Of a stretch of 64,000 bases of DNA, positions 953-6,980 are shown piece after piece. Position 1 is the stretch's first letter. Each line of letters begins with the position of its first letter. The notes under the pieces were generated by a model. That model worked only from the letters and a program-made list of their open reading frames with translations. It was not told the DNA's origin and ran no database searches. The stretch spans positions 21,824,001-21,888,000 of the forward strand of contig CM069157.1 of the NCBI GenBank assembly GCA_035221665.1, read 5' to 3'. Origin of the DNA: Okamejei kenojei (lineage: Eukaryota). A program made the position numbers and the translations under genes.

Positions 953-1490
953 TGTGAAAGTTTGTTTTTATAAAAAGCAGATAGCACAGCCGTTGAAGGT
1001 AGACCATGGCAGTCTTTAATCAATTCGTCAGACGGATGTGGCGAGATTACAATCAGCACAAACATTGCTCAGTGCTTCTTGTGCTCCCACTCACAGAACA
1101 AAGGCGAGTTAGCACAATTAGACATTTTTCTTATCATTAAAACACTCCTACCAAGTCTGAATATGGCATGACTGAAAGATTCTGTAGCCTTTCACAATAT
1201 AGGTAAAGCTGGGTCCAAATCGAGCTCACGCAATGACAAGTTATTACTTATCTCTGGAGCGTCAGCTATTTTCTTCAATCTTGGCTTCTTTATGGCCTTG
1301 AAGAGGCACATGTTATTACTGCAGGCGGTCATCTTAATGTCTTTATTGAAAAGACAACCTGTTCTCCATATTGTGTTTCATATAATTTACAAAGTCATTC
1401 AGACTTGGCACCGAGCCATTCTTTTGTTCTACTAATCCATGCTTTTGTAGATGAACGACTCCTTTTTAGATTTGACTATTAGCTGTTTCA
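953..1490 (-). repeat. 3' LTR of inner element
   Basis: 538 bp; preceded on - strand by PPT AAAAAGGAGGGAA (1491-1503). Confidence 0.92.
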
Positions 1491-1505
1491 TTCCCTCCTT
1501 TTTAT

Positions 1506-1696
1506 CAAACGTGATAACATTCAAAGTCCTCGGTAGGTACACACAATGGTTCCAAGTATTATAGCAGTATTAGCCGAATGATATAGACATAATGTATCAC
1601 AGTACCTCAAAGTCCACCAAACCAAAGGTATGGCAACCAGTTCAATAGTACCCCAAAGTCCATCCGACCAATGGTATGGCAACCAGTTCTCACTGT
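1506..1696 (-). pseudogene. env transmembrane-anchor tail of inner ERV (with a ~45-bp tandem duplication)
   Basis: DSENWLPYLWFGGL*GTVIHYVYIIRLILL aligns with the outer env DRECWPFSMFGGIWGMIIHYGFIVLL; lies directly before the PPT. Confidence 0.75.
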
Positions 1697-2436
1697 CTTC
1701 ATTGACAACCATTCTGATGAAGCCTGTTTAGGGTCAATGGATCAGGTGCCACCTATAGGCGGTGTAATCCTTTCAGCCGATATTGGGGTTGTGCCATAAA
1801 GTTTGCACCTGTCCGAGGGTGTTGCCAGTCTCTTCATAGATCATTGCACAGGTGAGGTGCTCCCCCCACCCCCCCTGTGGTGTGGTTTATCACCTTGATC
1901 TAGATGCTAGCGTATCCGTGGGCAGCTTCTCCTAGTAGGTTTGGATGGCCTGCTTCCACATCACCATGTAGAAGCGGCTGCTTGACTGGAAGCCAAAGAC
2001 AAAGCCAGCGTAGATTGCAGTCTGTGTTGATGTAGAAGGTGCCATTGAAGTTGAGGGCATTAAACTCCTCAAATCCGTCAGCAAGGCCAGGGTCAGAGTT
2101 GGCGGTCTGCAGTAACTCCCTGCCCTTGTTGCGCATTACCCAGTTAGGAACGACGTGCATCGTCCCCTTTGGAACTTCCTCAGGTCAGTCTTACTGATGG
2201 CGCTGTTCTCAGGGCACATGTCATAGATATCTGGGATGTTGTTGTCAAAGTCGTTCTTGCAGGTGTCTCCTCTGCTGTCACCATCGGCATCGATCTGGTC
2301 AGGGTTGGGAACAAAACAGCAATTGTCCTTCTCATCATAAACACCATCATTGCCATCCTCATCATTGTCCTGATTGTCATCACACTGATTACCCACCAGG
2401 TCTGAGTCATTGTCTTCCTGAATAGGGTTAGGTATA
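1697..2436 (-). pseudogene. THBS2: Captured intronless thrombospondin (subgroup A, THBS2-like) fragment: type-3 repeats plus C-terminal domain
   Basis: [14 protein letters not shown]...[22 protein letters not shown]...[77 protein letters not shown]. Contains stops and short deletions. Confidence 0.88.
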
Positions 2437-2566
2437 ATCTCTTTCAAGAGGTCCATCTGTTTCAAAATGTTCAGCTTCTCTCTCTTTAGACCCTTGGTCA
2501 TATGATAGAGCTCAAAATGCTTCAAGATTGTTGTTCAAATGTGGTTTGTCTTTCCGAAGATGTGAC

Positions 2567-3447
2567 CAAAGGCTTTGCACTTCCTTCTGATATATAAAGA
2601 TGTTCTTTCTTCTGCATGGATCAGCTTTACATGGCACTGCTGGTAGCGATCAATCAGAAATACTTTGTTACCTCCTGGGTGGGGGCAAGGTCTTTCACGC
2701 ACCTCTTCATGCTGCTCTTTTATGTGTTTCTTAAGTCCGTCAACACCTCTGTAAACAGCACAGCAACCCTTATACTGACATCAATACACGGTGGGGAAAT
2801 CTTCCCTTTCCAAGTTCCAAGACTTTGGTTTCCGGCCACGTTTCTGTCCAGATTGTTTCCTCACATCCTTAATATTGCACTTCTTAACTGGTAACTTACT
2901 CTTCTTCTTCCAATATGGTTGAAAAGACTCATCTGAAGAGCCATTCTTTTGTTACTTTTGTTTCTCTGTCATCTTCACTTGATAAATACCTTTCAGAAAG
3001 TTCACTGTACTCCAATCCATCCACAACATCATTTCTTATAGAACAAGTTGCTTCATTGCAGTTAACTTTTTTTTTCACATTTAATGGTTGAGTTGCATCT
3101 TGTACCTGAACTTTTTTTACCAAGAGCACTTCTGTATATTCAGGAACTGAGCACAAGAACATATCCTTCTTCAATGGGGATTCCGAGTTGTCCACATTCA
3201 CTGACCGTGAAGTAGTTCCGCTATATGTACAAGACTGAAAGTCTGCTAACACTGGGACAGGTTGATGCTTCGCAACATTATCACCCTCACTATTTTTAGT
3301 CACTGTTCCATTCCGAGGTGAAAGGGTTATTGAACCATCCAGAACTTCCTCCATTGAGTTCTTATTTCTACTGGATGGGCACTGTCCCTCAATCAAAACA
3401 ACGCTGCGATTTGAATGCATGTCCAAGATGTAACTGTAGCCCTCTGT
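2567..3447 (-). pseudogene. ZNF276: Captured intronless ZNF276 middle fragment (linker plus first two C2H2 fingers)
   Basis: SSDESFQPY...EREDFPTVY*CQYKGCCAVYRGVDGLKKHIKEQHEEVRERPCPHPGGNKVFLIDRYQQCHVKLIHAE...AKPL versus recalled ZNF276 EREELPTIYKCPYQGCTAVYRGADGMKKHIKEHHEEVRERPCPHPGCNKVFMIDRYLQRHVKLIHTE. Confidence 0.9.
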
Positions 3448-3449
3448 TA

Positions 3450-3630
3450 TCAGAGTTCTGAACAGTCCTTCTAATTGCGAGGATTCTGCCTGATTCTCCT
3501 CTACCCCATTGCAGACATTGGACTTTGTCTCTGGAACTGGTATGCTATAATGCTCAGAACTATGTTCTCCACACTAGCTTTTCCTTTGTTCTACCTTTTT
3601 AGTTAAGCTTGAATTGAATACATCTATTCA
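3450..3630 (+). repeat. Retroelement 3'-tail fragment inside the captured ZNF276 3' UTR segment
   Basis: Similar to the common tail family also seen near 20241-20355 (agaa.tat.ttct.ca.t...ctttg...cta). Confidence 0.45.
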
Positions 3631-5429: not shown

Positions 5430-5864
5430 CCCATCTTCTATAGACAGTGTCGCCATTGCCAGACATAGGGTCTTGAGAGGACCTCGAGAAGACTTACCGG
5501 TATTGGGTTTGTACTCTTATCAGCTTTCTTTCTCTGCCAGCCCTTACCTCCTATTTGTCTGCCCACTGAAATTCCATCTGAAGTACTTTCTAATATTTTA
5601 ATAGTTCTGTCTTTATTCCACAATTTAATTCCCCTTTTACAAGTATAATTCATCCAACCACTATCTTGCATCTCCACCCACTTCTTTTCTGCCTCTCTCT
5701 CTCTCTCTTCAATAGTCTCCATATTCCACATGCCTCCTACAGGTCAAGACACATTACTCCAACGTTTGGTCAATTTATAATACAAAATGCTATAATCCTT
5801 GTAAACAAATAACACACGTGTTGTACAGCTGTCTTTCCGTCACTCTTATCCAAATTATTTCCAT
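5430..5864 (-). pseudogene. gag N-terminal (matrix-like) remnant of inner ERV
   Basis: Follows the leader; ATG-(G)GAAAT reads M(G)NNLDKSDGKTAVQHVCYLF and later (W)PVGGMWNMETIEE; heavily degraded. Confidence 0.5.
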
Positions 5865-5934
5865 GTTTATCCAATCACCAAATCACTTCTTAGTACACAA
5901 CTTAGTACACAAATTGTAACAAACGTTTTCAGCA

Positions 5935-6220
5935 TGTTAAGCCCAATCCTTTATTTGTGACAAACCGTTGCCATCTGTAAAACCCAATCTGGTTTCTCTC
6001 TCTGGTAGCAAATTCACAAGTCTTTTCAAAACACACATTGTCTTTTCAATACGCATCTTTTCAATACACACTAGTGACAAAAAACGTTGTAGTCTGCCAT
6101 GCCCAATCCTTTAATTGTGACAAAACCTCTTTGGTCTGCCGTGCCCAATCCCTTAATCATTTCCAACACACAGGCCAATCCTTTACTCATTTCCAATACA
6201 CAAGCCAATCCTTTACACAA
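5935..6220. repeat. Short tandem repeats in the ERV leader
   Basis: Recurrent GCCCAATCC(T/C)TTA and TTTCCAA(C/T)ACACA.GCCAATCC units. Confidence 0.6.
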
Positions 6221-6419
6221 ATGGTCTTACCTTCGCTGTCTGCTTCTAAGGATCTTGTCTGGAACCAGGTCAATCAGGACTGAGGGACCTTAGTTTTTTA
6301 CCGGGAGCTTCTTCAGGAGGCCATACTGCAAAGGGTCCGACTAGAGCTCAGTTTTCTCCCCTTCAGATCCCGGTCAACTGCACCCTCTTACTCAGTCATC
6401 TGTTGCTGGTTCCAGCTAG

Positions 6420-6439
6420 ATCCCTGCCGACTACAGCCA
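6420..6439 (-). promoter_or_regulatory. Primer binding site, tRNA-Ser-like
   Basis: - strand TGGCTGTAGTCGGCAGGGAT versus the complement of the tRNA-Ser 3' end, TGGCGTAGTCGGCAGGAT; 2 nt after the LTR CA. Confidence 0.85.
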
Positions 6440-6441
6440 AA

Positions 6442-6980
6442 TGTGAAAGTTTGTTTCTTAAAGAGCAGATAGCAACAACCGTTGAAGGTAGACCATGGCA
6501 ACCCTTAATCAAATCGTCAGATGGAAGTGGCGAGATTACAATGAGCACAAACATTGCTCAGCGCTTCTTGTGCTCCCACTCACAGAACAAAGGCGAGTTA
6601 GCACAATTAGACATTTTTCTTATCAGTAAAAGATTCCTACCAAGTCTGAATACGGCATGTCTGAAAGATTCTGTAGCCTTTCTCAATATTGGAAAGCTGG
6701 GTCCAAATCGAGCTCATCCAATGACAAGTTATTACTTATCTCTGGAGCCTCAGCTATTTTGTTTTCAATCTAGTCTTCTTTATAACCTTAAAGAAGCACA
6801 TGTTATTACTGCAGGCTGCTGTCTTAATGTCTTTATTGAAAAGACAACCTGTCCTCCATATTGTGTTTCATATAATTTACAAAGTCATTCAGACTTGGTG
6901 CCGAGCCATTCTTTTGTTCTACTAGTCCATGTCTTTGTAGAAGAACGACTCCATTTTAGATTTGACTATTAACTCTTTCA
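6442..6980 (-). repeat. 5' LTR of inner element
   Basis: 539-bp copy of 953-1490 (about 91% identical by eye count); on - strand ends ...TTTCACA, then TT, then the PBS. Confidence 0.92.

Follow-up and report, generated by a model that had tools for sequence, protein, structure and literature searches.

A skate endogenous retrovirus family with nested, spliced fragments of four host mRNAs in place of env, probably captured stepwise by template switching

Within a stretch of 64,000 nt from the genome of the skate Okamejei kenojei (assembly GCA_035221665.1, contig CM069157.1, positions 21,824,001 to 21,888,000; the whole stretch is called the window), positions 953-6980 of the minus strand correspond to a gag-pol-deleted endogenous retrovirus (ERV) with paired long terminal repeats (LTRs) and host-derived cargo where env would be. 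The element belongs to a multi-copy family. Our reading, which we consider probable, is that this is a non-autonomous ERV family that took up nested, spliced fragments of four host mRNAs in place of env, in at least three steps, likely by template switching of the reverse transcriptase (RT), and that it was likely copied by a helper virus. A preliminary description, made from the window alone, had proposed a defective ERV that transduced two host mRNAs, a thrombospondin and ZNF276. Both identities stood, but two was an undercount: positions 2436-2608 derive from a third, CRACR2A-like gene, and the family as a whole carries four, the fourth being of the BicD family (BICD).

Results

The cargo and its intron-bearing parents

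All features of the element lie on the minus strand, and contigs of the host genome and family loci are designated C and L, respectively. The THBS2-like mRNA is split into a 5′ piece (3904..3949), 93% identical to the host exon at C8:31347996-31347950, and a broken 3′ piece (1697..2435) that encodes type-3 repeats and the C-terminal domain and from which four introns are absent. The thrombospondin piece matched Pfam TSP_3 and TSP_C, and its top match in PDB was thrombospondin-2. The intron-bearing parent lies on C8 at 31.34-31.35 Mb of the host genome; per exon piece, the cargo is 78-97% identical to this parent as against 68-80% to a paralog on C9.

The ZNF276 mRNA is present in two pieces in permuted order. 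Alignment with the parent placed the later half first (3440..3909, the last coding exon plus part of the 3′ untranslated region, UTR) and the earlier half second (2603..3446, which holds exons 4-9 and 9 nt from exon 10, without their six introns), with an exon numbering that presumes one unlocated exon encoding residues 1-53. The zinc-finger piece matched ZNF276 with a top identity of 75% to proteins of the skates Amblyraja and Leucoraja. The parent, with introns, was located on C17 at 55.21-55.25 Mb, its exons being mostly 86-100% identical to the Amblyraja protein. The captured 3′ UTR ends within a high-copy repeat (C17:55210416-55210602; window 3440-3600).

The pieces of a CRACR2A-like mRNA (EF-hand, coiled-coil, Rab) at 2436..2608 are spliced and internally deleted, and begin at a shared AAAGAA. 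Their parent on C19 (28.48-28.50 Mb) combines Ras-family exons with an EF-hand exon, for which the top PDB match was EFCAB4B/CRACR2A. A homolog search using the CRACR2A piece returned zero matches, and the only neighbours in the ESM Atlas were generic coiled coils of low recognition. The identity of BICD was given by Pfam (BicD, E 7e-29 for the parent on C16 at 58.48-58.50 Mb and E 3e-11 for the element's own piece) and is set at the level of the BicD family, with the paralog left unspecified; the PDB search gave nothing at E 1e-3 and weak matches at E 0.007-0.024.

All four cargo genes are in sense orientation relative to the viral RNA. No L1 hallmarks (poly(A) tail, target-site duplication of the insert) were observed at the cargo inserts, the sole run of at least eight A residues being located within the ZNF276 coding sequence. 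Comparison with the parental loci on C17 and C8 confirmed the intron loss that the preliminary description had expected for ZNF276 and the THBS2-like piece. Its expectation that the host pieces had no poly(A) tails of their own also held. Loci on C14, C40, C42, C18, C32 and C25 were considered as parents and rejected, as they are actually family copies, many of them split by later insertions. CRACR2A-like and BICD parents account for two of the four captured genes. Both proteins are dynein cargo adaptors. This is probably a coincidence, or else it reflects which mRNAs are present where particles assemble in germ cells.

Nesting and circular permutation

The inserts are nested in the order env[THBS2[CRACR2A[BICD][ZNF276]]]. 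Fuller copies (e.g., L037, L040, L046, and L049) start with the env leader, the THBS2 5′ piece, 25 nt of a late CRACR2A exon and BICD (three exons with two internal deletions), after which the late CRACR2A exon resumes and is followed by an early CRACR2A exon, ZNF276, CRACR2A, THBS2 and the env tail. The middle of env was replaced by THBS2, ~30 nt of THBS2 by CRACR2A and ~8 nt of CRACR2A by BICD; no sequence was replaced by ZNF276. Comparison with the fuller copies also located in the window copy the joint of a ~510 bp deletion at a short direct repeat (3902..3909). This deletion took the late and early CRACR2A pieces, BICD and ZNF276 exon 10, which most copies keep, leaving three host genes in the window copy as against four in the family. 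The window copy is also devoid of ZNF276 exons 2-4a; this shorter ZNF276 join was observed in 28 of 59 loci and a longer join in 18 of them. The succession of retroviral parts drawn in the preliminary description was recovered, but the split of THBS2, the permutation of ZNF276, the nesting and the intermediates had been missed.

In the fuller copies, the ZNF276 insert opens at exon 10(+4), crosses exon 11 to reach the 3′ UTR, and then continues from the middle of exon 2 through exon 9 to exon 10(+9). It is thus a circular permutation of ~2.0 kb of the mRNA, minus a ~128-nt deletion in the UTR. The jump from the UTR to mid-exon 2 took place at a 6-of-7 nt match; copies of the repeat in related organisms suggest that this closing match was originally 7 of 7 nt. 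The two ends of the insert overlap by the hexamer AAAGAA, which is present once at the insertion point in the host CRACR2A exon and on both sides in the element, and the left junction carries a 13-nt stutter of ZNF276 sequence. CRACR2A likewise has its later part first, the late and early pieces meeting mid-exon at an 8-nt identity. Short matches of 6-8 nt were found at the ZNF276/CRACR2A, ZNF276 UTR/exon 2, CRACR2A late/early and BICD/CRACR2A junctions, and the closing junctions of ZNF276 and CRACR2A are not splice sites. Exon trapping by a provirus located in a ZNF276 intron was rejected, because both junctions fall within exon 10, at 4 and 9 nt, and the exon 9/10 splice is contained in the right ZNF276 piece.

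Surviving intermediates and order of capture

Copies corresponding to successive stages were recovered from the same genome. L160, which is cargo-free and gag-pol-deleted, retains env and a pair of LTRs; its backbone and env are also found in L155, and the relative L156 keeps a broken gag-pol-env. Only spliced THBS2 is present between the env leader and tail of L169, which retains the ~30 nt gone from later copies. L170, L171, and L172 carry THBS2, CRACR2A and BICD with an uninterrupted CRACR2A and no ZNF276. The first form of the search pattern for an un-inserted CRACR2A join matched nothing and the second form found L170; a motif count that had suggested the absence of ZNF276 from 23 of 59 loci was non-specific and was discarded.

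We obtained a tree of 46 rows: the window, the host, and those loci (44 of 57) in which 550 nt or more of the THBS2 piece is present. The host and L169 were grouped (100/99) and 40 late rows formed one clade (99/99), with L170, L171, L172 and the rearranged L179 falling outside it. Three rows of the late clade were without ZNF276 in the fetched stretch: L161 and L184, for which the ZNF276 junction was found by the junction search, and the truncated L180. L179 itself has its CRACR2A-THBS2 piece inverted relative to its own LTR and carries middle-stage alleles.

At 41 diagnostic THBS sites, chosen as those that distinguish late copies from the host, the host allele was retained at 27/41 in L169, 11/39 in L170, 11/38 in L171 and 11/32 in L172; four middle copies had 10-11 host alleles and each of the six late copies checked had 0-2. 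At 19 CRACR2A sites, L170-L172 have 4-6 host alleles; of the late copies, four had data and none of these has any. The THBS2-only and ZNF276-less copies diverge first and have retained a larger share of host alleles, so that capture was stepwise. The order is shown to be THBS2, then CRACR2A with BICD, then ZNF276. The synonymous distance between the host and the commonest codon of each column (0.126 for THBS2, 0.048 for ZNF276) gave the same order, from related data.

Copies in the skate genome and in related organisms

The ZNF276/CRACR2A junction was detected at 103 loci of the host genome, with zero matches for a reversed-pattern control. In a DNA search with the element, 40 of 3643 candidates were scored and the best place of each was a family copy (87-92% identity), the number of candidates being likely inflated by the repeat in the ZNF276 UTR. 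Two long LTR matches were present in 8 of the 60 loci examined, seven of them with clean ends and a Kimura two-parameter distance (K2P) between LTRs of 0.057-0.107; in L187, the LTR ends were ill-defined (K2P 0.199). Matching 4-bp target-site duplications (TSDs), different from one another, flanked six of the seven clean two-ended copies, which marks them as independent integrations. The LTRs of the window copy are separated by a K2P of 0.083. Substitution rates are slow in chondrichthyans, and with such rates the LTR divergence would correspond to insertions tens of millions of years old. With the cargo located between paired LTRs and a TSD in a multi-copy family, the preliminary description was right to place the captures before the integration in the window and to foresee such a family in a cartilaginous fish.

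Sets of near-identical copies sharing later insertions were observed at C14:63.48 and 63.58 Mb, at C35:5.75 and 6.06 Mb, and at C40:4.09, 4.25 and 4.36 Mb. They are likely segmental duplications or assembly duplicates, which slightly inflate the number of loci.

Outside this genome, the Leucoraja erinacea RefSeq protein XP_055486697.1 (P0121), annotated as “thrombospondin-2-like,” starts at the CRACR2A/THBS2 junction and shares the deletions of the family (84% identity over 106 amino acids). It appears to be a copy of the element and a false gene model. Contigs of organisms F, D, H, and A bridge chimeric junctions (4 of the 23 listed runs were examined), and one 782-nt contig in run X10 crosses four of them. 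A predicted protein of 74 amino acids from Logan (P0124) is 97% identical to the chimeric CRACR2A-BICD frame. No RNA record carrying the chimeric junctions was present among the listed holders. Spliced joins free of the insert also occur in runs X12 and X15; they could correspond to host mRNA or to early-stage elements and were not used as evidence.

Discussion

A template-switching scenario and its alternatives

The window element has no RT, and the pol genes of its relatives are broken. Template-switch capture of mRNA has been proposed for LTR-mediated retrocopies (PMC5131818) and for the patching-in of unlinked host RNA by retroviruses (PMC4997597). In the scenario that we favor, a co-packaged host mRNA would have served as template during minus-strand synthesis: at each step, the RT would leave the element RNA at a short match, copy the host mRNA and return near its point of departure. 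For ZNF276, and less exactly for CRACR2A, one mRNA would have been copied in two passes. In the first pass, the RT would land at the hexamer and copy upstream, RNase H destroying that part of the mRNA. In the second, it would jump at a 7-8 nt match to the still intact downstream fragment and copy it to the RNase H-cut end by the landing point, where it would stutter and be forced to return to the element RNA. The outcome would be a circularly permuted mRNA with the landing hexamer at either side, so that the two-pass model would predict the polarity and overlap observed. The last-stage element, copied onward by the enzymes of a helper virus, would then have multiplied in a burst, being carried passively and serving no protein function. 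More tentatively, two passes with an RNase H-forced return might represent a general and hitherto unrecognised route of RT, recorded by the exact permutation in a fossil series of serial capture; we hold this generalization to be possible rather than probable.

Several observations weigh against this scenario or parts of it. Just one THBS2-only copy (L169) was found, and because its LTR differs from those of later stages, being L160-like and ~70% identical to that of L160, an LTR swap between stages must be assumed. Since all 29 candidates (29/29) yielded zero copies, beyond the host, having CRACR2A without BICD, the CRACR2A and BICD steps are not separated. The bootstrap of the tree had not settled (correlation 0.943), L181 has no matching TSD, and a search of 18 candidate loci turned up no intact helper provirus that shares the LTR. 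The two-pass step comes from a single exact case, ZNF276; the CRACR2A permutation is inexact, with ~195 nt missing between its ends, and the overlap at the CRACR2A/THBS2 junction is just 1-2 nt. Because AAAGAA occurs four times in the captured 2.0-kb span of ZNF276, a chance return to the same site is not negligible, its probability lying between ~0.6% (any site within 6 nt; our own estimate) and 25% (hexamer-limited). Finally, the ratio of non-synonymous to synonymous changes (pN/pS) in THBS2 is under 1 (0.62), which may reflect CpG decay at third positions.

Within the same stepwise history, ZNF276, and perhaps CRACR2A, could instead have entered as a circle, either a microhomology-closed cDNA or a circular RNA, by one crossover at the shared hexamer. 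As seen here, such a crossover would leave the target intact and the insert permuted, flanked at either end by the crossover word. However, an origin from back-spliced circular RNA was rejected, the closing junction running from mid-exon to mid-UTR and the UTR side having no GT donor; the 13-nt left stutter better suits repeated re-annealing of the polymerase than a clean crossover; and CRACR2A shows the same polarity yet has the ~195-nt gap. We therefore regard entry as a circle as unlikely, and retain the two-pass copying of a linear mRNA as the better account of these junctions.

Selection of the cargo could also be argued for, in that some chimeric protein or RNA might have aided the spread of the element or might serve the host. 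The 103 loci with the ZNF276 junction, compared with one THBS2-only and three ZNF276-less copies, go in this direction, as does the THBS pN/pS. So does the CRACR2A piece, whose frame continues into ZNF276 exons 10-11 (zinc fingers) and stays open over 171 codons to the natural stop in L040:3866-4378, L065:5174-5686 and L076:5068-5580 (minus strand); similar long CRACR2A-ZNF276 frames are present in L045 and L068. However, copy-number skew is common among retroelement subfamilies and an in-frame join has a one-in-three chance. Moreover, when selection was measured on copy-private changes (49 copies for ZNF276, 53 for THBS2), ZNF276 had a pN/pS of 0.90, 78 new stops and frameshifts in 44/49 copies, and THBS2 had 60 stops and frameshifts in 53/53 copies. 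In early copies as in late ones, the env leader and THBS2 are also in different reading frames. From the state of these reading frames the cargo looks broken and unselected, and we find a role for selection very improbable compared with passive spread of template-switched fragments.

Finally, we give hardly any credit to the idea that the host pieces are LINE (long interspersed nuclear element)-made processed pseudogenes, or mRNA-templated double-strand-break repair patches, in integrated proviruses that kept retrotransposing: LINEs are abundant and interrupt many family copies, and repair patches can be spliced, truncated and microhomology-joined, but none of the four inserts has a poly(A) tail, each is sense to the viral RNA and cut short at either end, three took the place of recipient sequence with no target duplication, and repeated nested events in one ~2-kb target are very unlikely for random genomic insertion.

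Comparison with known systems

The skate family displays the features by which Tan et al. (2016, PMC5131818) recognized LTR retrocopies, i.e., intron-bearing parents, both LTRs flanking, matches at the switch points, no L1 hallmarks and secondary retrotransposition. The closest likeness is to the mouse MERVL “Super” retrocopy described in the same paper, with four genes and a SINE (short interspersed nuclear element), listed there as one locus. Partial, poly(A)-less spliced mRNAs within parts of LTR elements, short switch matches, several parental genes per element and secondary retrotransposition are common to both. In contrast, the skate family has at least 103 loci, nested inserts, surviving earlier stages and an exact circular permutation, the internal order of “Super” being outside this comparison. 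In crocodilians, CrocERV31 carries nectin3 in place of env and CrocERV29 a KIT-ligand (Chong et al., 2014, PMC4299795). These are likewise vertebrate ERVs with host mRNA for env and several copies common to related species, but they have one gene each, with near full-length open reading frames (ORFs) under purifying selection, whereas the skate family has four frameshifted fragments and no clear selection. The maize element Bs1, with three transduced gene fragments (PMC13317346, PMC5131818), is also a non-autonomous LTR element that carries several unlinked gene fragments and was copied onward after capture; it is a plant element with an expressed chimeric gene, for which the portions of these papers considered mention neither nesting nor permutation. 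The capture of FAM8A1 by HERV-K (cited in PMC5131818) also involved a processed host mRNA with microsimilar junctions, but a single gene.

Acutely transforming transducing retroviruses share host mRNA for env, a helper-dependent genome and non-homologous template switching (PMC4997597). The transducing-retrovirus architecture put forward in the preliminary description holds as a structural likeness only: unlike in those viruses, we found no expressed, intact or in-frame selected host ORF tied to viral translation, THBS2 not sharing the frame of the env signal peptide, the cargo decaying with no sign of selection, and spread being in the germ line. LTR capture of mRNA was thus already known. 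Our literature search, which covered few subscription journals, retrieved no report that describes the skate family, LTR retrocopies in circular permutation, or nested capture whose intermediates survive.

Retroviral capture of host genes is usually seen just as an end product. Here, because cargo-free, one-, three- and four-gene stages coexist with the four parents in one genome, the order of capture, the chemistry of the junctions and their relative timing can be read directly. The ZNF276 permutation provides a concrete, testable prediction on how RT and RNase H handle co-packaged mRNA. If the two-pass route is true, permuted nested retrocopies would be expected throughout the ERV cargo of vertebrates, as a signature diagnostic of LTR-mediated exon shuffling. 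On the practical side, more than 100 copies seed false gene models, such as the Leucoraja erinacea protein mentioned above, and could confound read mapping for the four genes in skates.

The retroviral skeleton and integration site of the window copy

The defective ERV with paired LTRs and a TTAC TSD announced by the preliminary description was recovered. The 5′ LTR (6442..6980, TG...CA) and the 3′ LTR (953..1492) form a direct repeat with 92.2% identity, flanked by TTAC at 949..952 and 6981..6984 on the plus strand (GTAA on each side when read on the minus strand). The primer binding site (6421..6439), read directly, has a motif identical to that following the 5′ LTR in all of the eight two-LTR copies examined (8/8); we take it to be of the tRNA-Ser type from the tRNA 3′ end, and ARAGORN detected zero tRNA in the window. 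The polypurine tract (PPT; 1493..1507), also read directly, stands ahead of the 3′ LTR.

The leader and gag remnant (5400..6420) weakly resembled the L156 gag region in a tblastx comparison (E 2e-5) and had zero matches in a Pfam search. Next comes an AT-rich segment (4440..5400), which stands where most of gag-pol would be and had been left without identity in the preliminary description. As it is partly common to cargo-free relatives (patches of 81-96% identity with L155 and L160), it is at least in part backbone and not cargo; the remainder of 4440-5400, without match in these relatives, could hold an older capture. A broken C-terminal remnant of the integrase (4060..4440) is collinear with the pol end of L156, in which gag, pol and an env-like region succeed one another in that order, collinear with the window remnants, and whose pol matched Integrase_H2C2 at E 4e-5, weaker than the curated cut-off.

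The env start with its signal-peptide-like leader (3950..4058, out of frame with the cargo) was identified by sequence reading and by comparison with the env of relatives, and the transmembrane and cytoplasmic tail remnant (1520..1696) matches the env end of L155, L156, L157, and L160, which also have the env middle that is gone from the window element. Pfam gave no env match in the window or the relatives, and the identity of env comes from reading of motifs. The position of env between the integrase and the PPT, as read here, points to an element of the endogenous retrovirus type, as opposed to a retrotransposon of the Gypsy type.

The element was inserted into the tail of the env of an older related ERV in opposite orientation (1..948, plus strand; 69-77% identity to the env of L156, L157, and L160). 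This older ERV occupies window 1-948 and 6985-7700, and the LINE-rich 10 kb that precede it yielded no trace of its upstream part. On the other side, it resumes on the plus strand at 6985-7007, followed by a stop, a PPT extending to 7038 and a TG start, corresponding to an LTR start, at 7039. The env reading of the older ERV runs on across the TSD to this stop, PPT and TG start, which supports a true integration site.

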